In this document: in pieces, positions 13,970-26,070 of the stretch | How positions within the stretch are numbered: the stretch's first letter is position 1 | Layout of the letters: every line of letters starts with the position of its first letter | DNA from: Candidatus Eremiobacteria bacterium | Lineage (GTDB): Bacteria > Vulcanimicrobiota > Vulcanimicrobiia > Vulcanimicrobiales > Vulcanimicrobiaceae | Length of the DNA: 64,000 bases | Assembly: GCA_963758295.1 (NCBI GenBank) | Contig: CAVWUU010000001.1 | Span: 256,001 to 320,000, forward strand | Reading direction: 5' to 3' | The notes under the pieces: model-generated | Databases searched by the model: none | Told to the model about the DNA's origin: nothing | Seen by the model: the letters and a program-made list of their open reading frames with translations, nothing else | Position numbers and translations under genes: made by a program

Positions 13970-14944
13970 ATGCAGTATAGAGCGCTTGGACATTCGGGAT
14001 TAAGACTCTCAGCGATCGGGCTGGGTTCGTGGCTGACGTTCGGGAGCACCGTCGATAAGCAGACGGCGCGCGACTGCGTCATGCGAGCGTGGGAACTCGG
14101 CGTCAACTTCATCGACACCGCAAACGTTTACGCACGCGGAGCCGCCGAGATGACACTTGGACCAATTTTGAAAGAATTGCGTCGTGACGAACTCGTCCTT
14201 GCGACGAAAGTATACTTCCCGATGGGCGAGGGGATGCACGAACGCGGCCTTTCACGCAAGCACATCCGCGCCCAAATCGATGCATCGCTGCACCGGCTCG
14301 GGGTCGACTACATCGACCTTTATCAATGCCACCGGTACGATTTAACGACGCCTATCGAAGAAACGTGCCGGATGATGGACGACTTGGTGCGCGCCGGAAA
14401 GATTCTGTATTGGGGCGTTTCGGAATGGAACGCCGATCAAATTACCAACGCGGTAACGCTCGCCCGAGCGCGCGGATGGGCCGTACCGGTCAGCAACCAG
14501 CCTCAGTATAGTGCGCTGTGGCGGCGCATCGAAGCGCGCGTGCTTCCGGTTTGCGAAGAATACGGCTTGGGAAACGTCGTGTGGTCGCCGATCGCGATGG
14601 GGATCTTAACCGGAAAGTACACCGATGCGTCCAACCCCCCGGCCGGCACACGCGCGGCGAGCGGCAATCGAGACATGATGGAAGACTACTTTACGCAGCC
14701 GGTGCTGGACGCCGTAGCGAAGCTTAAGCCGATTGCCGATGAAGCCGGCGCATCGATGTCGCAACTGGCGCTGGCGTGGGTTCTGCGGCAGCCGGCCGTG
14801 ACGAGCGCAATCGTCGGCGCAACGAAGCTCTCCCACGTGGAAGACAACGTCGCAGCCGCAGACTTGCAGCTCGACCCGCAGATATTCAAACGCATGGATG
14901 AAATCTTGGAGCCGGTGGCCGCAACCGAACCATATATCGCTTAG
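13970..14944 (+). CDS. Aldo/keto reductase (Kv-beta/Tas-like)
   Basis: IDTANVY, LATK, DYIDLYQCH, GKILYWGVSE, WSPIAMGILTGKY. Confidence 0.94.
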   Translation: MQYRALGHSGLRLSAIGLGSWLTFGSTVDKQTARDCVMRAWELGVNFIDTANVYARGAAEMTLGPILKELRRDELVLATKVYFPMGEGMHERGLSRKHIRAQIDASLHRLGVDYIDLYQCHRYDLTTPIEETCRMMDDLVRAGKILYWGVSEWNADQITNAVTLARARGWAVPVSNQPQYSALWRRIEARVLPVCEEYGLGNVVWSPIAMGILTGKYTDASNPPAGTRAASGNRDMMEDYFTQPVLDAVAKLKPIADEAGASMSQLALAWVLRQPAVTSAIVGATKLSHVEDNVAAADLQLDPQIFKRMDEILEPVAATEPYIA

Positions 14945-14959
14945 CCGTTACCCCGAAAT

Positions 14960-14995
14960 GTAAAACACCGCCGGGCGTACCCGGCGGTGTTTTAC
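14960..14995. terminator. Bidirectional intrinsic terminator
   Basis: Perfect 16-bp inverted repeat GTAAAACACCGCCGGG-CGTA-CCCGGCGGTGTTTTAC between convergent transcripts. Confidence 0.85.
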
Positions 14996-15014
14996 TTGCT
15001 GCACTCTACGAGGG

Positions 15015-15116
15015 GTCGTTGTGTTGACGATCGCGGTAAACCGCGAGGACAACTTTCGGGGGCGTTGTTGGTGGAGGACAACGTCGCCCCCGTTCATCCC
15101 GCTAGAACGGGATGAA
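15015..15116 (-). ncRNA. Candidate structured 3'-UTR/sRNA element
   Basis: Three adjacent hairpins (15031-46, 15057-92, 15093-116); 9-mer GTTGTCCTC twice on minus strand; CCUCCACCA loop. Confidence 0.35.
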
Positions 15117-15124
15117 ACTTATGG

Positions 15125-15286
15125 TTAGTTCCAGCGCGTGATGATGCTGGACGTGCCGGCAACCTTCGGGCCCCAGCCGCTGAAAGAAGCGCTGCTCGGT
15201 GCGATTTGAATCAAGCGCGCGAGCGAAATCGTTGGTTCTGCTTCTTGCGTAGCGGCCTTGGGATCGGGCTGCGATGGGGTGTTCAC
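15125..15286 (-). CDS. Small peptide, 53 aa, FxGWGPK motif (MNTPSQPDPKAATQEAEPTISLARLIQIAPSSASFSGWGPKVAGTSSIITRWN)
   Basis: GTG start with GGAAGGA SD 7 nt upstream, TAA stop; shares its motif with the 23628-23738 peptide. Confidence 0.7.
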   Translation of the reverse strand: MNTPSQPDPKAATQEAEPTISLARLIQIAPSSASFSGWGPKVAGTSSIITRWN

Positions 15287-15446
15287 GAACGTATCCTTCC
15301 GTTATTTCAAAGACGCGTTCTTGCGTCTCCGTGCGTTACTCTACACCGGGTATTACCGCCTACCTATGACCTTTGTTTCAGTTCGTTACGCTTTGACAAT
15401 CGACTTATCGAATAACATGTTGCAGTGTGACAGTTGTTGTTTAGTT

Positions 15447-15479
15447 CGTCTTTAAAAGCGTCATAAAAGCGGCATAAAA
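15447..15479. promoter_or_regulatory. 11-bp-period direct repeats, candidate winged-helix regulator site
   Basis: CGTCTTTAAAA-GCGTCATAAAA-GCGGCATAAAA; related GCGTCATCAGA-ATCGAATCAAA at 17759-17780. Confidence 0.45.
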
Positions 15480-15493
15480 TAGGGAGTTTTGGC

Positions 15494-17725
15494 CTATGTT
15501 CCCGCGTCGCCACCCGCGCGTATCACATATTTCACGATGAAACGATTCAGCGTTACATACGCAGCCGGCGTTCCGTAATTGAGGTAAAGATCCCCATTAC
15601 GCAGCCGCATATGAAATGCGGCTGCAACGTTGAGACCGGTTTGTGTGGAGAATCCGCCCAGCCCGTTAATATCTCTTAAGGAAAGTGTCAAATTGCTGTC
15701 GCTTCCGGTGTCGATGCCCAGCGACACACGTCGCAGCCACTGCGATTCGAGTATGCCGGTCGCGCGGTCGCGCTGATAGCTACCGTCGTATTCGAGGCCC
15801 AAAGAATAGCGGGAACCAAGCGGGCGCGACGTCGAGAGCGTGTACAAGTGCGTGATGGCGTTATTGAAAAGCCCCCACGTCGCGCTAAAATCAACCGGCC
15901 GCGGCGTGCCGTCGTGGTAGCCGACCGGCAGACCCATGAGGTTGAACGGAACGTTCGTGCCGTTGCGATAGCACGGAAATCCGGTAAAGAAGCTTTGGCC
16001 GAGCGTCGGTCCGGTGCAATCGGCGTTTGCGGGAACGTCGTACGCCCGCAAATAGCTTATCGTCGGCCCCGCGCCGTTGATGGAGAAGCCGTTTTTGAAC
16101 GTGGCGGAAAGAAAGGTCGCAAAATCCGACTCGTGAACGGCGCCGCTGCGATCCAAAAGCCGGTCGCCGGCGATATTCAGATCCCAGTTCTTGATCGTTT
16201 TCGTGCTGCCGACAAAGTTGAGATAGCCTTGGAGTCCGCGGATGTCCGAGTTGCTGGTGTATCCGTCAATGGGATTGTAATTGGGCGAGATGTCGACGTA
16301 GCCGGCGTTGATCTCCCAGTTCGGCCGATGGATGTCGACGAAGTCGTTCATGCTGTGCGCGGTCCCCTCGGGAATCCACGATCCGTGCTCGACCGAGCCG
16401 TTCAGTCCCCACACGAGCGCCGTGTGCAAATTCCGGCCTTTTACACCCGCTTCGAAGGTCTGGTCTTGACCTGAAACGCCGTGATTAGCAAGGACGCCGT
16501 CGGACCAATACTGGAGCGTCTGATCTTGCAGCGCGTGCTTGTACCCGTACACGATGTCATCGAACGTTTCGTCCGTTACGTCGTTGTAACCGCGGAACGT
16601 CATGAGGCCGAAGCTTTGCAGACCGGACGTTCCTTCGATCTTCATGCCTCGATCGAACGGTCCGACGCTGGGCGAGTAGAAAATTTCGTTTGCCGGCCCG
16701 ATGAAATTGGAGTATCCGTTCGGTACCGGCGTCAGGAAATTAGCGCCTTGCGAGAAGAACGGCCGGTACTCGGTGAGCTGCCTGCGGAACTCTTGCGGCG
16801 CAATAGTTTGCTGATCGATTTCGACGTTCGAGAAATCGGGATTCGCCGTACCGACGAAATTGATGGTCGACGTCAGCGGATAGCTTACGTCGATGCCGAG
16901 CGGTCGAACGCTTTGCTTCAAGAATGCGCCGTCCGACTGTTGGAACACGTCACGGTCGCCGCCGAGGCTCGCGAGCGCGTAGACCTCCGCGCGCGGCTTC
17001 GGACGAGATTGCGCCGATGCTTGAACCGCGAATCCCGTCGCTGCGGGCCAATAGCGAAGATCGTAAAATCCCGGCCAGTTGCCGGCGGCAACGTCTTGCA
17101 TCAACCCGTCGAACGCCCACGAGTAATGTTCGCCGATTGCCGAAACCTGCCGGAAGAATCCGATGCGCCACGTTTGCGGCGAACCGCCGTGAATGCGCAA
17201 GATGTTTAGCGGAATAATCATTACGGCGCGCCACGTGTTGCCTTCAACTTTCGCGGCGCTGTGCCATAACGGGCGATAGCGCGCGTTTTCACTAGCCTGC
17301 TCGTAACGGATTGCGCGCGGCGTCGTTTCGAAGAAATAGGCTTGCGACCCGGCGCCGCTTGTGTCCAAGCCGACTCCAACGAAGTCATCCGTGCCGAATC
17401 CGACGTCGTTCGTCGTCTGCGTCGCGACGATCGGCGTGCCATCTTGGAACGCCTCGAAACCAATGTAGAGATTCCGGTCGTCGTAGAGAACGTAGGCGGT
17501 AGTGGGAAGCGTCGCCGCGCTTCTCGTGGTCACGTTCTCCCAGGCTCCCTTCGTTGGAACGATACCGGCCTTCCACGCCGGATCCGTCATGGCTGGATCC
17601 AAGGGAAGCGGGTGGGGAGCTTTGGCGACCGGGAACGAAAACGTAGCGGGTACGGCAGCATTAACCGGACCGGCGAAACACCAGAGCCCGACCGCTGTAC
17701 AGAGAGATAAGATGGCGCGCTTCAT
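15494..17725 (-). CDS. Secreted/outer-membrane protein with CBM9-like N-terminal domain and DUF5916-like beta-barrel region
   Basis: Signal peptide; T.AYVLYDDRNLYIGF...DDFVGVGLDT...WRAVMIIP sugar-binding-like domain; TANPDFSNVEID...EYRPFF.QG motif; amphipathic beta strands. Confidence 0.75.
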   Translation of the reverse strand: MKRAILSLCTAVGLWCFAGPVNAAVPATFSFPVAKAPHPLPLDPAMTDPAWKAGIVPTKGAWENVTTRSAATLPTTAYVLYDDRNLYIGFEAFQDGTPIVATQTTNDVGFGTDDFVGVGLDTSGAGSQAYFFETTPRAIRYEQASENARYRPLWHSAAKVEGNTWRAVMIIPLNILRIHGGSPQTWRIGFFRQVSAIGEHYSWAFDGLMQDVAAGNWPGFYDLRYWPAATGFAVQASAQSRPKPRAEVYALASLGGDRDVFQQSDGAFLKQSVRPLGIDVSYPLTSTINFVGTANPDFSNVEIDQQTIAPQEFRRQLTEYRPFFSQGANFLTPVPNGYSNFIGPANEIFYSPSVGPFDRGMKIEGTSGLQSFGLMTFRGYNDVTDETFDDIVYGYKHALQDQTLQYWSDGVLANHGVSGQDQTFEAGVKGRNLHTALVWGLNGSVEHGSWIPEGTAHSMNDFVDIHRPNWEINAGYVDISPNYNPIDGYTSNSDIRGLQGYLNFVGSTKTIKNWDLNIAGDRLLDRSGAVHESDFATFLSATFKNGFSINGAGPTISYLRAYDVPANADCTGPTLGQSFFTGFPCYRNGTNVPFNLMGLPVGYHDGTPRPVDFSATWGLFNNAITHLYTLSTSRPLGSRYSLGLEYDGSYQRDRATGILESQWLRRVSLGIDTGSDSNLTLSLRDINGLGGFSTQTGLNVAAAFHMRLRNGDLYLNYGTPAAYVTLNRFIVKYVIRAGGDAGT

Positions 17726-17805
17726 AGGCTAACCGAGCATCCCTCGGTTGGCGTCTGGGCGTCATCAGAATCGAATCAAAAGATTTTCGTCGAAGGACGG
17801 CAGCG

Positions 17806-19218
17806 ATGAGCCTCTATGCGTTCGGTCCGTTTCAGCTCGATGTCGAGCGTCTTCTTCTTTTGCACGCAGGAGAGCCGGTAGCGCTGGGTCCGAAGGTCGT
17901 CGAGACCCTCCTCGCGCTCATCGAACACCCCGGCGACGTCCTCGCGAAAAGCGCGCTTTTGGACCGCGTGTGGCCCGAAGGGTTCGTCGAGGAAGCGAAT
18001 CTCGCCCAAAATATCTACGTCCTGCGAAAGACACTGCGCTCCAGCTGGGACGTCGACGCAATCGAAACGGTCCCGCGGCGCGGCTACCGCTTTGTTGCAG
18101 CGGTTCAGCTGGTCGAGCATGTGATGCCTTCCACTCCGGAAGTCGTCGTTGACGTGCCGAAGCGGCGGCTGATCTCGCGCCGGCTCGTTGCTACCTGCGC
18201 GGCGGTGCTTTTCGCCTTAGGGCTTACGGTGATGGGCGCGAACGTGCTCGCGCGTCATTCGTCTCCGGCGACTCTGTCCGATGACGGGGCGCGCCTGTAC
18301 ACGATCGGGCGCTATTACTGGAATTCGCGTTCGCAGGACGGCGTCGCAAAAAGCATCGATTATTTTGCGCGCGTAATAGACACGGATCCCCGCAACGCGC
18401 GCGGATACGCAGCGCTCGCCGAAGCGAACGCAACGATGGCGGATTACCGCTATGGCACGCTTGGGCCGAAGGTGTATCTCTCACGTGCGCGGGCCTACGC
18501 GGAGAAGGCCCTCGCGCTCGATGCCAACTGCGCGGAAGCTTACGCGGCGTTAGGCCTCATCGATCTGAACTCGAAGCACTACGACGTTGCCGTCGACGAA
18601 CTCCGTCACGCCATTTCGATCGACGGTTCGTACGGACCGGCGCACGAGTGGTACGGCATCACGTTGCTCGGCCGCGGTCAGCTGCACGACGGCCTGCACC
18701 AGCTCGAAATTGCGGCCGATCTAGATCCGCTCTCGGTTTCCACGACGGCATGGCTTGGATCCGCAGCGTATCTGGACCGTCGCTTCAGCGAAGCGATCGC
18801 ATACTCGCGCCAGGTGCTCGATCTTGCGCCGAATCGCTCGGACGCCTATGCGATCATCGGCGAAGCGTACGAGGCGCAGGGAAACTACGAGGCAGCCATC
18901 GAGTCGTTCAAGCGCTATAAAGCGAGCGACCCGGAAGCGCGCGCGGAAGGCGCCGCATTACTGGCGCATGCCTATGCGTTGAACCACCATATGTCCGCGG
19001 CTCGGACCGAGCTTGCCTATGCGAAGGAACATTCGAACGATGTCGATCCCGGCGACTACGCGCTTGCGCTAGCGGTCGTCGGCGAGAAGAACGACGCCTA
19101 CAGCGTTCTGCGCCGCTTGCGTTCGCATAACATGTCGTGGATGGCCATCGAAAACGATCCCCGTTTCGACGCGTTGCGTTCCGACCGGAAGTTCCGCCAG
19201 ATCGCCGCTCCGGCATAA
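17806..19218 (+). CDS. One-component transmembrane transcriptional regulator: OmpR-type winged helix, TM helix and TPR repeats (CadC-like)
   Basis: YAFGPFQLD...VEEANLAQNIYVLRK.L...IETVPRRGYRF; one TM helix; multiple TPRs (DPRNARGYAALA...). Confidence 0.9.
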   Translation: MSLYAFGPFQLDVERLLLLHAGEPVALGPKVVETLLALIEHPGDVLAKSALLDRVWPEGFVEEANLAQNIYVLRKTLRSSWDVDAIETVPRRGYRFVAAVQLVEHVMPSTPEVVVDVPKRRLISRRLVATCAAVLFALGLTVMGANVLARHSSPATLSDDGARLYTIGRYYWNSRSQDGVAKSIDYFARVIDTDPRNARGYAALAEANATMADYRYGTLGPKVYLSRARAYAEKALALDANCAEAYAALGLIDLNSKHYDVAVDELRHAISIDGSYGPAHEWYGITLLGRGQLHDGLHQLEIAADLDPLSVSTTAWLGSAAYLDRRFSEAIAYSRQVLDLAPNRSDAYAIIGEAYEAQGNYEAAIESFKRYKASDPEARAEGAALLAHAYALNHHMSAARTELAYAKEHSNDVDPGDYALALAVVGEKNDAYSVLRRLRSHNMSWMAIENDPRFDALRSDRKFRQIAAPA

Positions 19219-19671
19219 ATGGCGTATAGCTCGCTCTTCGAAGCGCTCGCGGTCCGGCCGCAGCTGGCGCGATCGCTTGCCGCGCACATGCGCGAATTGA
19301 GCGACGGCGGCTCGGTTCCCAAACGGACGAAAGAACTGATCGCGCTGATGGTCGGCTGGCTCAATGCGTGCGATTACTGCACCTGCGTCCACGAAGAGAT
19401 CGCGCGTCACTTGGGCATCGATACCGCGACGCTTGAAGGACTGAGCGACTTCGCGCGCAGCCCGCATTTCACCGATGCCGAACGGGCCGCGCTCGCGGCC
19501 ACCGTCGCCTTGACGCGCGAGCCGCGCGCGCTGCCGCCCGCCATTTGGGAGAGTCTGAGCGCGCAGTACGACGAAGGGCAGATCGCGGAAGTGCTCTCGG
19601 TAATCGGTTTCAGTAATTACGTGAGCCGTCTTAGCAACGCGTTAGGGATCGAAGCTACGCAACAGGTTTAA
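19219..19671 (+). CDS. AhpD/carboxymuconolactone decarboxylase family protein
   Basis: KELIAL.V...NACDYCTCVH; FTDAERAAL. Confidence 0.88.
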   Translation: MAYSSLFEALAVRPQLARSLAAHMRELSDGGSVPKRTKELIALMVGWLNACDYCTCVHEEIARHLGIDTATLEGLSDFARSPHFTDAERAALAATVALTREPRALPPAIWESLSAQYDEGQIAEVLSVIGFSNYVSRLSNALGIEATQQV

Positions 19672-21130
19672 ACGCGCGAGCCATCACTCGCTCCGCGGTG
19701 ATAAGGCGCGTGCCGCTCCAACGATCGTGCAGCATGATATGACGCATGATGGGGCTTAGCACGAGCAAAAACGGCCACAGGAGAAGCGCCAAAACGTAGC
19801 GCCACACGGTTCGCCAGACGCCGGGAGGGCGAAAATCCGTCGTTACAACGCGCAATCCCGCAATCATCATGCCGAAGCTTTGGCCGGCAACGGCTACGAG
19901 CACGGTCAGGTAGATGGCGGCAAACCAAAACGAGATCGAGCCGGCTTGTAAGACCGGAAGCACCGTGTCGACGGCCTTTGCGATCGGCGAGGAGTTTTGC
20001 GTGAGGTGCACGCCTTCCGGCGTGAGAGACAACCCGCCGAACGAAAGGAGTTTGGGGCCGGCATCGTTGCCTTCATCTGCCGGTGCCTGGACGTCGACGT
20101 GCACGCCGCCCTTCGAGTAAACCGTTTTGCTGCTTTTGGTGGCGGGCGCAGTCGTTCCCGGAGTTTGCACGTACGCGGCATCGTGGTTCGTGATTGCTCC
20201 GTACAGCGCGCCGACGATAATGAGGTCGATCGCCACAGCCGCAAACCGGCGCCACCAGCCGGCGCAATCGCCGCGTTGCACTTTTACGGCGCCCGGCGAA
20301 GGCAGCGCGGGCGGTTCGACCGCGGCTTCGCGTAAGAACCACTCTTCAAAGATTTGAAATTGTTGCGTTCGTTGGAACGCATCCATGTGCGCGATGCGTC
20401 GCGTGGCGTACGGCTCCGCGCCAAGCCACTCACCCCACTTCAACACGCTGTCGCGCGCGATCTCGCGTCCTTGCTCGGCAAATTGCTGCACGTTGACTTG
20501 ACGCCCAAAATGATGGAACGAAGAAACGGCGATCGCTCGTGCCGCCGCGTCGAGCGAACCGCAAACGAGCAGTCCGACTTTATCGCACGTGAATTCGCAG
20601 TTGCGGAGCCACGCGCCGAAGATTAGCGCGACGATCGGGTTTTCGTTGCCGTTGACGCTTAGCAGCGAAAGGTAGCGCGTATGTCCGGCGGCGATGTGGC
20701 CGAGCTGCCGTCCAACGATGAATGCCAGTTCGTCGTCCTCGAAGTGCTCGATCCAATGGCTAGAAAGCACGAGCGCGTATGGATCGCCGAAGCCAAGCGC
20801 GGCGACGGGAACGTTGTAATCTTCGCGCACGAAGATGAGCGGCATGGGAATCTCGAGGGCCGCGCACGCCCGCTTCACGATCGCGAAGACTCGCGGGTAC
20901 TGCGCCTCGTGAATCATGACGGAGGAGCCGATGAGGCGTCCCCGTGCGAGCGTCACGTAGATCATCGCGACGACGATGAAGAGTGCGACTTCCGATTCGC
21001 CGATTCGTTCGTGGATGAAGAACCCGATCAGCGCCGCTGCGGGAAACGCGAAGAGGAGCGTTAGAACGAAGGTTAGGCGCTCTCGCGGGTCGCGAAGTGA
21101 CGATGGTCCCGAGAATAACGGACTGGACAC
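19655..21130 (-). CDS. Membrane protein: M48 peptidase-like domain (degenerate HExxH) fused to an RDD domain
   Basis: DDELAFIVGRQLGHI, EFTCDK.G, WWRRFAAVAID, GQSFGMMIAGLRVV, LHDRWSGT. Confidence 0.82.
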   Translation of the reverse strand: MSSPLFSGPSSLRDPRERLTFVLTLLFAFPAAALIGFFIHERIGESEVALFIVVAMIYVTLARGRLIGSSVMIHEAQYPRVFAIVKRACAALEIPMPLIFVREDYNVPVAALGFGDPYALVLSSHWIEHFEDDELAFIVGRQLGHIAAGHTRYLSLLSVNGNENPIVALIFGAWLRNCEFTCDKVGLLVCGSLDAAARAIAVSSFHHFGRQVNVQQFAEQGREIARDSVLKWGEWLGAEPYATRRIAHMDAFQRTQQFQIFEEWFLREAAVEPPALPSPGAVKVQRGDCAGWWRRFAAVAIDLIIVGALYGAITNHDAAYVQTPGTTAPATKSSKTVYSKGGVHVDVQAPADEGNDAGPKLLSFGGLSLTPEGVHLTQNSSPIAKAVDTVLPVLQAGSISFWFAAIYLTVLVAVAGQSFGMMIAGLRVVTTDFRPPGVWRTVWRYVLALLLWPFLLVLSPIMRHIMLHDRWSGTRLITAERVMARAFKPVA

Positions 21131-22344
21131 GAGGGCTTCTCGTCAATACGCACGGCCGTTTCCTCCTGGGCAGGCGCGAGCTTCGCGCCGCTTCCGCCAT
21201 TGCGCTTGACGATGTACATTTCGCGGTCCGCCGCTTGCAGCAGGGCGCGCGCGTTTTGGGCGGCGTTGGGATACGTTGCCACGCCGACGCTTGCGTTGAC
21301 GTAGATCCGCCGCTCGTCCACGATGAGGGGCTCGTCGAAGCTGCGCAGCAGCTTCCGCGCCGCATCGAGCGCGGCCGCCTCGGTATAAAGATCTTCAACC
21401 AGGACCACGAACTCGTCGCCGCCGATGCGGCCGACGGTGTCGGTTGCGCGGACGTTGCGGTTCAGGCGTTCGGCGACGCTTTCGAGGACTGCGTCGCCGA
21501 AAGCGTGGCCGTGCGCGTCGTTCAGGGCTTTGAAATCGTCGAGATCTAGGAACAGAACGGCGCACTTGCGTTCGATGCGCTGCGCTCGAACCAGCGCCTG
21601 TGAAAGCCGTTCCTGGATAGCCGCGCGGTTCGGTAACCCGGTAAGCGGGTCGTGCAAGGCCAGATCGGAAAGCTGCGCTTCCCGATCTTTCAGATCGCTG
21701 ATATCGATGATCGTGCCGATCCGCGCAAGGGCGATGCCGCGCTCATCGACGAGCGTACGAACGCGCTCGCGTACCGTTCGTACGCGGCTGTCTTCTCCGA
21801 GGATGCGATGATCGCAGACGTACTCATCGCCGCTTTGCGCCGCGAGCTCGTGGGCGATCCGCTCGCGCTCCTCGTCGTGATCGAAACTTCTAATATCGAA
21901 GGGCTGCGCGTGCTGATCGATGCCGAGCAGTGCCGCGAGGCCTTCCGATATCGCCACGGCGCCCGTGCGCAAATCTTCGTGCCATGTGCCCATTCCGGCA
22001 AATCGTTCGGCATGGCGGAGCGTTTCGGACTGGAGCGGAGAGTGTTGCTGGATTTCGACCGCCCGTCCCGCCACGCCGACCGTTAGCCCTCTCAAATCTT
22101 CGAGCGGCTGCAGCTCGAACCGGAACGTTCCGGAACCCACGGTTGCCTCGAAGGCGAGATGCTCGCCGTCCAAAGCCCAATGGTGTGCGACCGTTGCGAC
22201 ATTGAAAGGGTCGTCGTTTCCCCAGAGATCGCTCACGTGAAGAGCGGAGTCGATCCCGATTCCTGCAAGGCCGCGCAGCCGAGCCGTAAGCGACGTGACC
22301 TGCAGATTCCTATCGGTTGTCCAGACCATGGCCTGGTCGTGCAT
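21073..22344 (-). CDS. PAS-domain diguanylate cyclase (GGDEF)
   Basis: HDPLTGLPNR, DLDDFK..ND..GH..GD, RATD I-site, intact GGDEF. Confidence 0.92.
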   Translation of the reverse strand: MHDQAMVWTTDRNLQVTSLTARLRGLAGIGIDSALHVSDLWGNDDPFNVATVAHHWALDGEHLAFEATVGSGTFRFELQPLEDLRGLTVGVAGRAVEIQQHSPLQSETLRHAERFAGMGTWHEDLRTGAVAISEGLAALLGIDQHAQPFDIRSFDHDEERERIAHELAAQSGDEYVCDHRILGEDSRVRTVRERVRTLVDERGIALARIGTIIDISDLKDREAQLSDLALHDPLTGLPNRAAIQERLSQALVRAQRIERKCAVLFLDLDDFKALNDAHGHAFGDAVLESVAERLNRNVRATDTVGRIGGDEFVVLVEDLYTEAAALDAARKLLRSFDEPLIVDERRIYVNASVGVATYPNAAQNARALLQAADREMYIVKRNGGSGAKLAPAQEETAVRIDEKPSCPVRYSRDHRHFATRESA

Positions 22345-22391
22345 TCCGCAATCCTTTTTCGTAAGCGAATCTCTGGTGTGCTTATCCTAGC

Positions 22392-22553
22392 GAGACCGCA
22401 CCCCGTGGAGCATCCGTGGAAACCCCTGACCTTTGAACCATCACCGGCTTCGCGTACCCCTGGGGAGCTTGCTTGGAATGGGAAGCCGGGCAACCTCTTC
22501 TGGTGTGAAGTCTCGGGAACGCAGAAGGGGACGGTGCTCGCATCGTCCCCTTC
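22392..22553 (+). ncRNA. Candidate structured non-coding RNA with 3' hairpin
   Basis: Closing helix GAGAC-CGCACC/GGTGTG-AA-GTCTC, internal stems CCGTGGA/TCCGTGG and CCGGCTTC/GAAGCCGG, then a 14-bp hairpin. G-U pairs favour the plus strand. Confidence 0.45.
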
Positions 22554-22574
22554 GTTCAGTCGCGCGTTGTCTGC

Positions 22575-22886
22575 CTACTTACCAGAGGCATGTTCCTCCC
22601 ACCGCTGCTTCGCGCGCCTTCCGAACAGGCCAACGATGCGGCCGTTCAGGCGCTCCCGCGTCGCCGGAGACAATATTCTTGTGACGACGAGCAACATATA
22701 TAGTTGCACGAACGCATATGGCAAGTTAATTGCCGGTTCGCGTCGCGCGAGCACGAACCAGCTGAATACGAAAAGCACGATGCAGGCAGCGATGCTTATG
22801 AAGCGGCGATATCGCACCACTATGATGAGGCCGTTCGCGAGCACAAGCACCGCCGTCACATCGCGGACAAGTTCATGCAAAGACAT
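22575..22886 (-). CDS. Small membrane protein (about 3 TM), immunity-protein-like
   Basis: 103 aa from ATG 22886; hydrophobic helices and a basic tail; directly downstream of 22892-23338. Confidence 0.6.
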   Translation of the reverse strand: MSLHELVRDVTAVLVLANGLIIVVRYRRFISIAACIVLFVFSWFVLARREPAINLPYAFVQLYMLLVVTRILSPATRERLNGRIVGLFGRRAKQRWEEHASGK

Positions 22887-22891
22887 CCGGG

Positions 22892-23338
22892 CTAAGTGCC
22901 TTTCATGCACGTGACGTATAAGTAAACCATGTCAATGCCGGCGCCGATCCCTGCGGCCGCTAGCACGGCCGGCAAATCGATGGCCGACGCACATGCGATT
23001 AGCACGTCGGCGAATCCAGCGAGAGACACCGAGCCTGCGATGACGCCTCTCGCGGCAGCGATCAAGGCGGTACATGCTTGCTGCCCGCGTATGGACGCCG
23101 TTTGGAAAACCGCGTAGGCGTTTAATTTATAAAGCGCTTCGTCCAGGATAGAATCGGGCGTTATTCGCGGGGATGACACGAGCGATTGTGGTGCCGGGCC
23201 TCCGCAAGCCGCGAGCGCAAGTCCACTCAAGCCCCAGGCATTGTTCCGAAGAAACACGCGCCGGATCCCACAAAATCGTTCAAAGCAACGCATCCTCTCG
23301 TAGCAAAGCAGAACGACGATGAGCGCGCGCTTAATCAA
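22892..23338 (-). CDS. Small lipoprotein-like protein with Ala/Gly/Cys-rich hydrophobic C-terminus (start uncertain)
   Basis: Lipobox LAAC followed by ...ACTALIAAARGVIAG...IACASAIDLPAVLAAAGIGAGID...VTCMKGT. Confidence 0.55.
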   Translation of the reverse strand: MIKRALIVVLLCYERMRCFERFCGIRRVFLRNNAWGLSGLALAACGGPAPQSLVSSPRITPDSILDEALYKLNAYAVFQTASIRGQQACTALIAAARGVIAGSVSLAGFADVLIACASAIDLPAVLAAAGIGAGIDMVYLYVTCMKGT

Positions 23339-23543
23339 CCACGCATGTTACGCTTCGACGATCGCACCCACCGTCGAATGATCACCATACGAAGGTATGC
23401 TACAAGACGCCTTCTGTTGCTCGGCGATTAGGCTAAAAGTGAATGTGAGCCAATTTAAGATCTCAAAGGATACGCGGGTGCCTTCGGCGTGACGGCCGCC
23501 TACGCCTCACCGGATACACGCGAAAATTTTTCCGCGTACCCCC

Positions 23544-23604
23544 TTGACGCTGCGTACCACTGTGCTATTGTACTAGTGTACTAGTACGACATGAGACTGG
23601 TACG
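23544..23604 (+). promoter_or_regulatory. Sigma70-type promoter overlapped by a palindromic YtrA/GntR-type operator
   Basis: -35 TTGACG (23544-49), extended -10 TG-C-TATTGT (23563-71); dyad CGTACCA-N10-GTACTAG-TGTA-CTAGTAC-N10-TGGTACG (23553-23604). Confidence 0.75.
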
Positions 23605-23627
23605 GCAACGAAAGAAAGAAGAACGCC

Positions 23628-23738
23628 ATGACCCGCTTCATCAACCGCCCCGAAGAAAATGAAGTCCGCGAAGCCCGCGTCCGCATCCCCTACCAGATGA
23701 GCGCCCCAATTTTCCAGGGCTGGGGACCGAAGTTCTAA
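23628..23738 (+). CDS. Small peptide, 36 aa, FxGWGPK motif (MTRFINRPEENEVREARVRIPYQMSAPIFQGWGPKF)
   Basis: ATG after purine-rich GAAAGAAAGAAG, GC3-rich codons, TAA 7 nt before the GntR start; first ORF after the promoter. Confidence 0.72.
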   Translation: MTRFINRPEENEVREARVRIPYQMSAPIFQGWGPKF

Positions 23739-23745
23739 GCCGCCA

Positions 23746-24144
23746 ATGCCCGTAGTACTGACGGTCGACCCCCGCAGCGGGGTGCCGATTTACCTCCAAG
23801 TGATCGATCAGATCAAACGCTCGGTGGCAATAGGCATCCTCATGGCGGGCGAGCAGCTCCCAACCGTCAAGCAGCTCGCGCTCGATCTAACGATCAACCC
23901 GAACACCGTCGCGAAAGCCTACCGAGAGCTGGAGCGCGATGGGGTTATAGAGACGGCAGCCGGCCGCGGTTCGTTCGTCCGCAGCAACGGCCACGTCGAT
24001 ACGACGAAGGCCGCCGCGAAAGACGTAGCTCGCGATTCGCTGGAAACCGCCGTGCGCGAAGCAAAGTCCATCGGCCTCAACGCCGACGAGATTCGATCCT
24101 TGATGAATGCTGCAATCGACCGGTGGTTCCAGGAGGGGCAATGA
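23746..24144 (+). CDS. GntR family regulator, YtrA subfamily
   Basis: PIYLQ...GEQLPTVKQLA.DL.INPNTVAKAYRELERDG.I....GRGSFV; short C-terminus; upstream of an ABC ATPase. Confidence 0.93.
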   Translation: MPVVLTVDPRSGVPIYLQVIDQIKRSVAIGILMAGEQLPTVKQLALDLTINPNTVAKAYRELERDGVIETAAGRGSFVRSNGHVDTTKAAAKDVARDSLETAVREAKSIGLNADEIRSLMNAAIDRWFQEGQ

Positions 24145-25051
24145 GCACGATCACGATTCAAAATTTGCGAAAAACCTATGGCAAGTACGTTGCCGTGGAC
24201 GATTTTTCGGTCACGATCCCGGAAGGCACCGTGTTCGGATTGCTTGGTCCCAACGGCGCCGGTAAAACGACTACCTTCAAGTGCATGCTCGGACTCGCTA
24301 ACCCCGACTCCGGCTCGGTACGCTACGACGGCAAGACGCTCGTTCCCGAAACGTTCGAGCGCATCGCGTACGTGCCGGAAAAAAGCGTGCTCTACGAATG
24401 GATGACGGTAGCCGAACACGTCGAGATGCAGCGGCGTTCGTACCGCAGCTTCTCCGTGAAGCAAGCACAAGATTTACTTGCGCAGTTCGGAATCGATCTG
24501 CGCAAGAAGACGCGCGCGCTCTCTAAAGGAATGCGCACCGCGACCCAAGTGGCGCTTGCAGTTTCGCGCCAAGCCGACATTTTGATCCTCGACGAGCCGA
24601 CGAGCGGGCTGGATCCGATCAACCAGCGCCACGTTTTGAACCTGATCATCAACGAAGCATCGCGCGGCGCAACGGTCATCTTCTCGTCGCATCAAATCGG
24701 CCAAGTCGAACGCGCTGCCGAAAACATCGCGGTTATCGATCGCGGACGCCTGGCGCTCGAGGGAACCATCGACGATCTCAAAGCGGATCGCAAGATCGTC
24801 AAGGGCATCTTCCCAAGCGAGACCTACGCACTGGACGGTATTTCGGCCGACACCCGAGTCGCGCGCGTGGATCGTAGCGGCCGGATCGTGCGCCTCTTGG
24901 TGAACGAAGGCGCCCGGATCTCGCTGCAAAGATCGAATCCCTCGGCGCCGGCGGCGTGCGCATTGTGGATTTGAATCTCGAAGACATTTTCTTATATGCA
25001 GTCGCTCCTTCGGAGCAGACGGCCGACGTCGTTGAGGAATCGCCTAAATGA
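24141..25051 (+). CDS. ABC exporter ATP-binding protein (frameshift near 24913-24915)
   Basis: GPNGAGKTT, LSKGM, ILDEPTSGLD, SSH. The alternative frame continues DLAAKIESLG...LNLEDIFL...PK* to TGA overlapping the next ATG. Confidence 0.88.
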
Positions 25052-26070
25052 CCTATGTTGAATGGCTACGCGTACGCAACGTGCTGCGCGTGCTGGCCAT
25101 CGTCCTCGGTATCTTGATCGCGATCTCGCTCGTGTTGCGAATTTCGTTCAACCGGTACATCACCGATGACAACGCGTTCATCCAACACGTGACGATGGCG
25201 AAGGGTGCCAGAGTCGCGCATGAAGTGCTCCCGGGCGGGATCAATCGTACGCACATCGACGATCCGGGCGACAATACGCACATCATCGTGGACGATCTCG
25301 GCTATGGCGGCCGGCACATCGTAATTACCGAGCCGCGAAAGAACTCCACGCATCACGGCGATCACGTAACGATCGGCAGTGTGGAAGTCAAAGAAACCGA
25401 AAACGCCGACACGACTACGACGGTCATCGACACCAACAGTTCCGTGCCGTTCCTCTACTATATGATGATTGCCGATATCATGGCCTTCGTAATCGCAACC
25501 GTCTTAGGCGCACCCTTCGCCCGTGAAAACGACGGCCACCTGGAGTATGCGCTCACCAAACCGGTTTCACGCATAGGGTTTGCGTTCCAGACGATGGGCG
25601 TGGACATCGTAGGCATCGTCGCCGCATCCCTTATGACCATCGTCGCCCTCGTCATCTGCCAATCGATGTTCGAAGTTCCGCACTTTGACTTCAGCGGCGT
25701 GAATCTGCAGGCAATTCTAATCGGTATCGCGGCACCGCTTGCATGGTACGCCATGCTCAACGCCGCGAGCGCATCCTTGCGGCGGGGCTATGGTGCCGTG
25801 CTCGGATTCGCGTGGCCGGTGGCCATTCTAATAACGGTGTTTGGCACGATCTCTTGGGGCGACTCGCTGGTAGGAGGCGCCGTGCATAACATCTTCTGGA
25901 CGATCTCGCGTATCGATCCCCTTACGTACATTTCGACGCCATCGCAGCGCGAAGCAATGCATGGGACGCTCGTAGCGCCGTACTTCGGTATCCGTATCAC
26001 TCTCGAATGTTTGCTCTTCCTCGTTTATATGACGCTCGCGCTCTTTCAATGGCGCCGCGTGGAGGCGTAA
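25048..26070 (+). CDS. ABC-2-type permease with extracytoplasmic beta-rich insertion
   Basis: About 6 TM helices; ARENDGHLEYALTKPVSR permease loop motif; coupled to the ATPase. Confidence 0.8.
   Translation: MTYVEWLRVRNVLRVLAIVLGILIAISLVLRISFNRYITDDNAFIQHVTMAKGARVAHEVLPGGINRTHIDDPGDNTHIIVDDLGYGGRHIVITEPRKNSTHHGDHVTIGSVEVKETENADTTTTVIDTNSSVPFLYYMMIADIMAFVIATVLGAPFARENDGHLEYALTKPVSRIGFAFQTMGVDIVGIVAASLMTIVALVICQSMFEVPHFDFSGVNLQAILIGIAAPLAWYAMLNAASASLRRGYGAVLGFAWPVAILITVFGTISWGDSLVGGAVHNIFWTISRIDPLTYISTPSQREAMHGTLVAPYFGIRITLECLLFLVYMTLALFQWRRVEA

Follow-up and report, generated by a model that had tools for sequence, protein, structure and literature searches.

YtrA-type repressors have no ligand-binding domain, and the manner in which they are switched is known for few systems, namely through the binding of phenol-soluble modulins (PSMs) or through sequestration by an ATPase. 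In Staphylococcus aureus, small PSMs without signal sequences bind the YtrA-type repressor PmtR and induce the pump PmtABCD (PMC5080381). In Streptococcus salivarius, a preprint describes the repressor MbrR as being sequestered by the ATPase of its own ATP-binding cassette (ABC) transporter (bioRxiv 10.64898/2026.02.18.706565); this control of MbrR via its transporter shows that repressors in modules of this kind have to be acted on from outside. In Bacillus subtilis, ytrG is the first gene of ytrGABCDEF, an envelope-stress-responsive ABC operon in which it lies directly 5' of ytrA (PMC12772383). In this study, a stretch of 64,000 nucleotides from a Candidatus Eremiobacteria genome (contig C1, positions 256001-320000; hereafter the window) was analyzed with respect to two short open reading frames (ORFs) that share the motif F-x-G-W-G-P-K, one of which is followed directly by a ytrA gene.

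A further point of comparison is apidaecin, in which the penultimate basic residue contacts the release factor and the C-terminal aliphatic residue lies near the P-site tRNA. Its last eight residues are intolerant of change and its N-terminal half is tolerant, and the peptide is active when expressed from a gene, its site of action in the producing cell being a stop codon (PMC11347161).

The comparative evidence presented here establishes both window ORFs as real genes, and their family as one of undescribed, lineage-restricted micro-proteins that is almost confined to the phylum Eremiobacterota.

Materials and methods

The genome assembly comprises six contigs and 3.03 Mb (3,030,452 bp) and is 82% complete; all six frames of its 3,030,452 bp were searched for F.GWGPK. 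The motif was also back-translated to the degenerate DNA pattern TTYNNNGGNTGGGGNCCNAAR, for which the same pattern reversed served as the control, and this was applied to 41 relatives and to 401 genomes sampled evenly across the phylum Eremiobacterota. The total of about 294 matches in the phylum sample was counted from the table as 150 listed and 144 unlisted. For the counts of end types and neighborhoods, 46 motif instances were taken with long flanks. Two unpublished genomes (G004 and G024) contribute rows to the alignments A1-A6 and to the pattern counts, and are not the sole basis of any conclusion.

Alignments of 53 aa and 45 aa served for homology searches. The type B profile (the types are defined below) was searched at E up to 0.001 against 1.84 billion representatives, in clusters at 50% identity, and the type A profile at E up to 1 among 897 candidates. 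The codon alignment contained 48 YtrA-linked peptide sequences. A6 is a DNA alignment of the type A locus from ten genomes, and RNAalifold was run on eight published genomes.

Results

The peptide family and its coding evidence

Conceptual translation confirmed the two unannotated small ORFs that an earlier note on this DNA had described: one of 53 aa, which opens with GTG and ends in ...SFSGWGPKVAGTSSIITRWN, and one of 36 aa, which opens with ATG and ends in ...IFQGWGPKF (Table 1). In its own genome, F.GWGPK occurs only at these two ORFs, and a third short ORF outside the window (C1:681790-681927, equal to L066:6791-6928) ends in F-D-G-W-G-P-R-L*. Among the 41 relatives, TTYNNNGGNTGGGGNCCNAAR gave 44 matches in 25 genomes against one match of the reversed control, and in the phylum sample about 294 matches in 214 of the 401 genomes against about ten. 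The pattern-positive genomes numbered 193 of 296 in family f1, 18 of 30 in f3, none of five in f2 and two of 69 in the remaining families together, and the ORFs and the motif are kept in relatives from two families of one class. One YtrA-linked peptide (genome G011; L071:4193-4312, minus strand) ends in ...FQGWGVKF*, with V replacing P, and the DNA pattern therefore undercounts the family.

Conservation at the level of the protein, as the earlier note had supposed, is borne out by matches far above the reversed control and by third codon positions that vary while the residues are kept. In the codon alignment, kept residues are encoded by synonymous codons (E as GAA 20 times and as GAG 18 times; V as GTT, GTC or GTG; R as CGG, CGC, CGT or CGA), and the codon entropy peaks at third positions, including columns outside the search pattern. 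Insertions and deletions come in multiples of three, the frames stay open with a Shine-Dalgarno (SD) sequence and a start across about 100 divergent loci, and at the loci of the relatives nearly every chosen start is preceded by an SD-like sequence.

The 46 flanked instances differ in the way in which they end. In 30 of them the stop follows exactly one residue past the K (type B, as in the 36-aa ORF), in three it comes after two residues and in one after three. Ten bear a conserved tail of 10-12 residues ending in W/F/L-N (type A, as in the 53-aa ORF), and two run on into a longer protein.

The type B profile recovered 86 clusters, all but two of 34-54 aa, most of which align from residue 1, the start being the one chosen by independent gene calls; the type A profile recovered 209 database proteins, each named match being a 'hypothetical protein'. 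Among the public sequencing runs listed, none of RNA contains this DNA, and two DNA runs contain small shares (0.06 and 0.05). The record titles of the matches name Candidatus Eremiobacterota/Vulcanimicrobiota, Baltobacteraceae, Vulcanimicrobiaceae, Cybelea, Tumulicola and Aquilonibacter. In a scan of 185,579 species genomes, the family was, among the matches listed, almost confined to metagenome-assembled genomes (MAGs) of Eremiobacterota; a few differently labelled MAGs carry clear family members on short contigs, which we take to be binning errors. The peptides gave no Pfam match and no NCBIfam match at E up to 1, and the earlier note had likewise not recognized the motif from a named family; a type A query of the ESM Atlas reached a best score of 0.84 in unnamed clusters that offered no lead. 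The string 'GWGPK' was not found in literature text, and among the matches listed nothing in the literature joins the names Eremiobacter, Vulcanimicrobi or Baltobacter with a small protein, a leader peptide or YtrA.

The peptides are hydrophilic and of about 34-56 aa, and their sole invariant part is the octapeptide F-x-G-W-G-P-[K/R]-hydrophobic, which is preceded by a block of 15-25 residues specific to each subfamily. The AR[LV] and SA elements to which the earlier note drew attention are shared by the two window ORFs but are not family-wide. For the type A alignment, AlphaFold2 gave a mean pLDDT (predicted local distance difference test) of 62 and a pTM (predicted template-modelling score) of 0.13, without secondary structure, and the peptides are predicted to be unstructured coil.

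In MAGs of Polyangiaceae/Myxococcales, DNA encoding F-W-G-W-G-P-K-T-stop occurs several times per genome and twice on one 6-kb contig (loci including L072, L075, L087, L088, L090, L091, L102, L117, L119 and L148). These matches were rejected as family members, their upstream frames being unrelated and of random length; they probably reflect a DNA or RNA repeat that has no connection with the peptides.

The type B peptide and the YtrA-ABC operon

Judged by the promoter and operator in front of it, type B is the first cistron transcribed from a YtrA-repressed promoter; only the purine-rich GAAAGAAAGAAG stands before its ATG. The best NCBIfam matches of the window YtrA are Rv1152 and PmtR, and the ATPase is matched by the PmtA model, all below the cut-offs. 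The order peptide-ytrA-ABC is kept in f1 and f3, including f3 loci that have no other neighbor in common with the window. In the global sample, where the conserved N-terminus of YtrA served for recognition, ytrA lies directly 3' of 46 of 69 distinct type B peptides, a lower bound since this pattern missed some. Across 61 distinct junctions the gap between the peptide and ytrA is 3-34 nt, mostly 3-20 nt, with modes at 6 and 10, and 37 of the 61 lack an SD-like sequence in front of ytrA. Because of these junctions, translation of ytrA should depend on ribosomes that finish the peptide; given such coupling, each round of expression would make the peptide and the repressor together. A peptide-less YtrA operon in genome G131, in which ytrA has an AAGGA SD sequence of its own, agrees with this coupling.

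On the other side of the peptide gene, the window holds a gene for an M48 peptidase-RDD fusion and a GGDEF gene (19655-22344, minus strand), which overlap by 58 nt if each is taken to begin at its first possible start. Throughout family f1, the gene that lies divergently beside the peptide-ytrA operon is the M48-RDD gene.

The type A locus

Type A orthologues with the conserved tail are present in nine other genomes. In the window, the gene lies 207 nt behind the DUF5916-like gene and faces an aldo-keto reductase gene in convergent orientation, and therefore nothing is translated after it. The DUF5916-like match scores 22.2 bits, just under the Pfam cut-off of 22.6. The regulator, a winged helix-turn-helix (wHTH) protein with one transmembrane (TM) segment, is encoded divergently and has its hydrophobic stretch at residues ~128-146 and its TPR on the far side of that segment. 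Its gene (cluster c4), the most frequently listed neighbor of type A, is among the five genes displayed to one side at nine of the ten loci, and the DUF5916 cluster (c6) near type A at eight of ten, two genomes having the regulator but no DUF5916 gene. These two genes and the GntR/YtrA, ABC ATPase and membrane-protein genes of the type B operon are the neighbors that the earlier note had named.

In the ten-genome alignment, the non-coding flanks of type A are as conserved as the ORF. The upstream box TGAAACAAAGGTCATAGGT is followed about 6 nt on by an invariant GT(A); TGAAAC and GT(A) are present, but not a full -10 element. The box is unique in its own genome at up to three mismatches, and the boxes of the 3' region are likewise unique there. 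The upstream box may be either an ECF-type (extracytoplasmic function) -35/-10-like promoter element or a site of the adjacent wHTH regulator. At the site of the hairpin in the 5' untranslated region (5'-UTR), other genera have GGAACGC/GCGTTCC, which, read by eye, is a compensatory change.

The second hairpin of the 3' region bears an invariant anti-SD-like loop, UCCUCCAC, and an invariant box, CCUCGUAGAGUGCAGCAAG, lies behind the hairpins at 15013-14995, before the intrinsic terminator (~14993-14961) that ends the type A transcript. RNAalifold (eight genomes) gave 27 pairs, 18 of which have at least one change on both sides. A search of Rfam with window positions 14000-25000 at E up to 1 gave only two sub-threshold matches, both on the terminator. 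Because of the conserved flanks, the compensatory pairs and the boxes that are unique in the genome, type A is concluded from the alignments to be a small, dedicated, conserved structured transcript. This transcript may be a dual-function RNA that combines a small ORF with a structured 3' region, the latter being a candidate small RNA derived from the 3'-UTR.

Table 1. Features of the type A and type B loci in window coordinates.
Feature	Coordinates	Strand	Remarks
Structured 3' region of type A: two hairpins, boxes, terminator	14961..15120	-	Alignment and RNAalifold
Type A peptide gene, 53 aa, GTG start, F-S-G-W-G-P-K-V and 12-residue tail ending W-N, stop TAA	15125..15286	-	
SD sequence GGAAGGA of type A, 7 nt before GTG	15294..15300	-	Orthologues have AGGA/AAGG before the start
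5'-UTR hairpin AGACGC/GCGTCT, just 5' of the SD sequence	15311..15328	-	
Upstream box TGAAACAAAGGTCATAGGT	15362..15380	-	Invariant columns in the ten-genome alignment A6
Exported DUF5916-like protein, 743 aa, signal peptide	15494..17725	-	Cluster c6
ToxR/CadC-like regulator: Trans_reg_C wHTH, one TM segment, C-terminal TPR	17806..19218	+	Cluster c4
Promoter TTGACG, 16 nt, TG-TATTGT	23544-23571	+	Overlaps the palindromic operator
YtrA-type operator, perfect palindrome GTACTAGTGTACTAGTAC	23570-23587	+	Relatives have this palindrome before the peptide ORF
Type B peptide gene, 36 aa, ATG start, end F-Q-G-W-G-P-K-F, stop TAA	23628..23738	+	First cistron
ytrA, 132-aa GntR/YtrA-type repressor, without its own SD sequence	23746..24144	+	Begins 7 nt past the peptide stop
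ABC ATPase, DrrA/PmtA-like	24123-24974	+	Overlaps ytrA
Membrane protein, 340 aa, no family match	25048-26070	+	Linkage of ATPase and membrane-protein genes kept in both families

Other contexts of the motif

The third copy in the genome lies 11 nt before a toastrack (DUF4097) gene that is followed by a DUF6249 gene, and it and its orthologues (L066, L061 and L064) head this toastrack/DUF6249 operon. Divergently oriented to this operon are genes for an ECF sigma factor, a small unassigned ORF that is possibly an anti-sigma factor, a response regulator and a kinase. Upstream of these peptides stands TGAAAC-N16-CGTA, and GAAAC-N16-CGTA precedes L057, where a VUPS-GGDEF gene follows the peptide; a motif like it was read by eye on the opposite strand, before the divergent ECF sigma gene. 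ECF-type promoters have a GAAAC-type -35 and a CGTA-type -10 element at a spacing of 16-17 nt, which the sequence upstream of the third-copy peptides resembles. As a general ECF promoter the pattern was rejected: TGAAAC-N16/17-CGTA occurs 11 times in the genome, which is about chance, and is no evidence by itself.

At further loci, the gene behind the peptide encodes an ECF sigma factor (L041), a STAS protein (L038) or a Zn-dehydrogenase (L045). The f3 members L042-L046 stand alone as monocistronic genes between a promoter region and an intrinsic terminator. Boxes containing GTAC (CCGTACC, TTGTACCG and CGTACCATAAGG) occur about 100-170 nt 5' of the peptide starts of L042-L046, near an ABATE/zf-CGNR regulator gene, and may be an operator.

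In one subfamily, a gene for a BTAD-STAND(-TPR) regulator adjoins all four members, and such genes, of which there are 3-13 per genome, also lie near both fusions. A YcaO gene follows the peptide in two of these four members, in G021 (L065:7053-8840, with a 105-aa ORF between the peptide and YcaO) and in G406 (L199, G406:C22), and is absent as a neighbor in L197 and L198. At L197, a separate secreted TonB_C protein, the peptide and the BTAD regulator are encoded side by side.

A search for the motif in longer proteins gave, among 7999 candidates, TonB_C proteins in four clusters and one over-extended ORF, and the motif was accordingly rejected as a general signal-peptide motif. The TonB_C fusions, the sole fused form found, have 156-160 aa in the four clusters and 156-175 aa over all the proteins noted (P0123-P0126; L051:6167-6652, minus strand; L063:6423-7154, plus strand). 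The entire peptide module makes up their N-terminal ~42 residues. Each of the five sequences seen has, directly behind the motif, a run of about 13 hydrophobic residues and then an AxA site. The N-terminus thus resembles a cleavable signal peptide with a long conserved n-region, in which the motif marks the transition to the hydrophobic core.

By these gene neighborhoods, the family is wired into regulatory modules, mostly of the envelope-stress kind, and the association with particular neighbors, the want of which the earlier note would have taken as a refutation, is non-random for YtrA, the wHTH-TM-TPR regulator and BTAD-STAND in the proportions given above.

Discussion

The favored reading, to which a probability of about 0.42 is assigned, is that the family consists of unstructured trans-acting peptides with a portable docking motif that are wired into envelope-stress regulation. 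Through the octapeptide, all members would dock onto one shared partner at the interface of cytoplasm and membrane, and the variable block would provide specificity for the neighboring regulator or transporter. In the YtrA-ABC operon, the peptide would then act on a repressor lacking a ligand domain, either as its small effector or as a feedback element, by a logic resembling that of PSM-PmtR or MbrR-MbrA. A function of the finished polypeptide is suggested because the motif is kept before a stop, before a tail, before a signal-peptide core and in monocistronic genes. Action in trans is suggested because type A has its own terminator and a convergent next gene and thus no downstream cistron, because the stand-alone f3 members are monocistronic and end at a terminator, because four TonB_C clusters keep the whole module before a hydrophobic segment and AxA, and because ten of the 46 instances bear a conserved tail of 10-12 residues past the motif.

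However, a number of observations weigh against this reading. The stop lies exactly one residue past the K in 30 of 46 instances, and the YtrA-linked peptides keep to 34-39 aa. Furthermore, the stops of 59 YtrA-linked genes are TAA (45) or TAG (14) and never TGA, against about one-third TGA genome-wide (TAA 131, TGA 125 and TAG 109 among 365 crude long ORFs on two contigs of the same genome; the YtrA-linked loci are mutually related, so that no formal test was applied). All three features would be expected of a leader that arrests the nascent chain or its termination, and a docking motif needs none of them. In at least one lineage, the YtrA-ABC operon exists without the peptide: the orthologous operon of G131 (ytrA at L070:3650-3960, minus strand) has the operator palindrome, no peptide ORF, and a ytrA gene with its own AAGGA SD sequence. 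The mean column identity of YtrA is 78% while the variable block of the peptide drifts, which is not as a tight peptide-YtrA interface predicts. In addition, the neighboring regulators may just control the peptide genes and not bind the peptides, and much of the synteny lies within one family, so that the loci are not independent. A complex prediction for the YtrA dimer with the peptide of its operon (alignments A4 and A5) scored 0.00 in both runs, made without controls, and counts neither for nor against the reading.

An unlikely but serious alternative is that type B is a cis leader, in which a chain ending in W-G-P-K-hydrophobic slows termination at a stop that RF1 can read, and the held ribosome covers the ytrA start 3-20 nt on and so gates translation of the repressor or of another next gene; type A and the fusions would then be derived forms with another role. 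The ribosomal exit tunnel holds about 34-39 aa, which is the length of the YtrA-linked chains, and the fixed distance from motif to stop and the lack of TGA stops point the same way. So do the variable N-terminal half beside the invariant last eight residues, the position as first cistron before unrelated genes (ytrA, ECF sigma, toastrack, STAS and GGDEF), the SD-less ytrA starts and a layout like that of apidaecin (PMC11347161). Type B is a short ORF directly 5' of the next gene on the same transcript, as is typical of arrest leaders such as SecM and TnaC; type A and the monocistronic members are not. The octapeptide is kept without a following stop in the type A tail and in the TonB_C fusions, and it is kept without a following gene in type A and where sister-family members are monocistronic. 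V replaces P in one YtrA-linked relative, prolines are few (four of 36 residues in the type B peptide of the window), and the gap of 3-34 nt is too short for an SD-sequestering hairpin as in control of the SecM type. These junctions, most of which are 3-20 nt long and of which 37 of 61 have no SD sequence, offer no space for a downstream RNA structure that hides an SD sequence or a terminator. The stall at G-P that the earlier note had offered as an alternative survives for type B only, and is weakened by the internal motif, the members with their own terminators and the V-for-P relative.

It is doubtful that the peptides are an exported signal or cargo, pheromone- or bacteriocin-like, which leaves via the co-encoded ABC pump and is sensed by TPR regulators; for type A, this would entail sensing by a periplasmic TPR, perhaps after cleavage behind the K had freed the 10-12-residue tail. 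The linkage of peptide, YtrA and DrrA/PmtA-like ABC across two families is in line with such a route, as are the TPR-bearing regulators near type A and near orphan peptides and the conserved type A tail with its W/F/L-N end. However, the peptides contain neither a signal peptide nor a double-glycine leader and are neither amphipathic nor hydrophobic. Their genes are not linked to any peptidase or C39 domain, and many members have no ABC pump or TPR gene nearby. The TPR of the type A regulator is periplasmic and those of the STAND proteins are cytoplasmic, which leaves no single sensing route. RRNPP systems combine an exported or processed peptide with an adjacent cytoplasmic HTH-TPR receptor, whereas here there is no export signal and the TPR lies beyond the TM segment. 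The single circuit of ABC export, outer-membrane passage and TPR sensing through which the earlier note had joined both ORFs is therefore unsupported: the pairing of A and B is synteny inside one family, the YtrA-linked peptides L039, L040 and L047 of the sister family have neither DUF5916 nor TPR genes beside them, and the DUF5916 gene is absent beside type A in two genomes.

Rather improbable is a further reading, in which the peptides are bacterial chromosomal counterparts of apidaecin whose chains in the exit tunnel hold the release factor at a stop read by RF1. If it were true, the first cistron would act in cis as a sensor of the termination rate that meters YtrA, ECF sigma or toastrack protein per mRNA, and in trans the peptide could be an antibacterial that leaves through the co-encoded ABC pump, which would then serve in immunity.

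A precursor of a ribosomally synthesized and post-translationally modified peptide (RiPP), in which an enzyme encoded elsewhere modifies the C-terminal motif with its Trp and Lys, is very improbable. The YcaO genes that follow the peptide in G021 (L065) and G406 (L199), the C-terminal position of the motif, where a core peptide would lie, and the adjacent BTAD/SARP-like regulators agree with this proposal. Nevertheless, neither the window ORFs nor most of the 46 contexts have a radical-SAM, YcaO, P450, lanthipeptide or peptidase gene beside them, the YcaO neighbor is confined to two of four members of one subfamily, from which L197 and L198 are excepted, and an invariant putative core behind a variable leader is the reverse of most RiPPs.

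That the conserved element is RNA or DNA rather than protein, or that the ORFs arose by chance, is scarcely credible: type A is embedded in strongly conserved structured non-coding RNA, and the Polyangiaceae matches come without a consistent ORF, but synonymous variation at kept residues, indels in threes in open frames with an SD sequence and a start at about 100 divergent loci, a reversed control of ~10 against ~294 and the want of any Rfam family match all speak against it.

In a whole class of a soil phylum that has hardly been studied, a conserved peptide gene stands before ytrA, with its translation apparently coupled to that of the repressor. The eight-residue motif is found again within ECF-sigma/toastrack modules, next to STAND and ToxR-like regulators and in the putative signal peptides of TonB_C proteins, and one short motif across unrelated regulatory modules points to a shared partner or a shared ribosomal mechanism, the finding of which would explain several orphan regulators at once. 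The family comprises real genes below the size that annotation pipelines name, with about 300 database clusters, all 'hypothetical'. A cultured relative exists, Vulcanimicrobium alpinum (PMC9758169), and experiments are therefore feasible.

Comparison with known systems

Conserved motifs in the n-region of signal peptides are known from the Tat twin-arginine and YSIRK-type motifs. Like these, the octapeptide of the TonB_C fusions stands where the n-region gives way to the hydrophobic core, some 20-25 residues ahead of AxA; unlike these, it is carried by one small protein family (four clusters), and a hydrophobic core is absent from most of the peptides.

With apidaecin (PMC11347161), the peptides share a C-terminal Pro, a basic and an aliphatic residue, a constrained stretch of eight last residues and a tolerant N-terminal half. 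They differ from type II proline-rich antimicrobial peptides, which have ~18 aa and a Pro-Arg-Leu end with a free carboxylate, in having four Pro in 36 residues, K more often than R, and a W-G pair. They further differ from apidaecin in that the motif is internal in type A and in the fusions and that their origin is bacterial and lineage-restricted.

The gene order of the type B operon recalls that of ytrG, likewise a small gene of no known function directly 5' of ytrA in a YtrA-repressed ABC operon (PMC12772383). YtrG is described as a small transmembrane protein, whereas the window ORFs have no hydrophobic segment, and no sequence relation to it was seen. The window operon also resembles MbrR-MbrAB in having a YtrA-family repressor without a ligand domain, a repressor which in the case of MbrR is controlled via its own ABC transporter. 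The abstract on MbrR-MbrAB describes no small peptide gene, and the mechanism given is sequestration by the ATPase.

The PSMs are amphipathic helices that are encoded elsewhere and are themselves the cargo of the pump, whereas the window peptide is hydrophilic, predicted to be a coil and encoded by the first cistron of the operon; its motif is common to peptides in unrelated modules. Like the PSM/PmtR/PmtABCD system, the window has a short YtrA-type GntR repressor, a palindromic operator and a DrrA/PmtA-like ABC transporter together in one operon.

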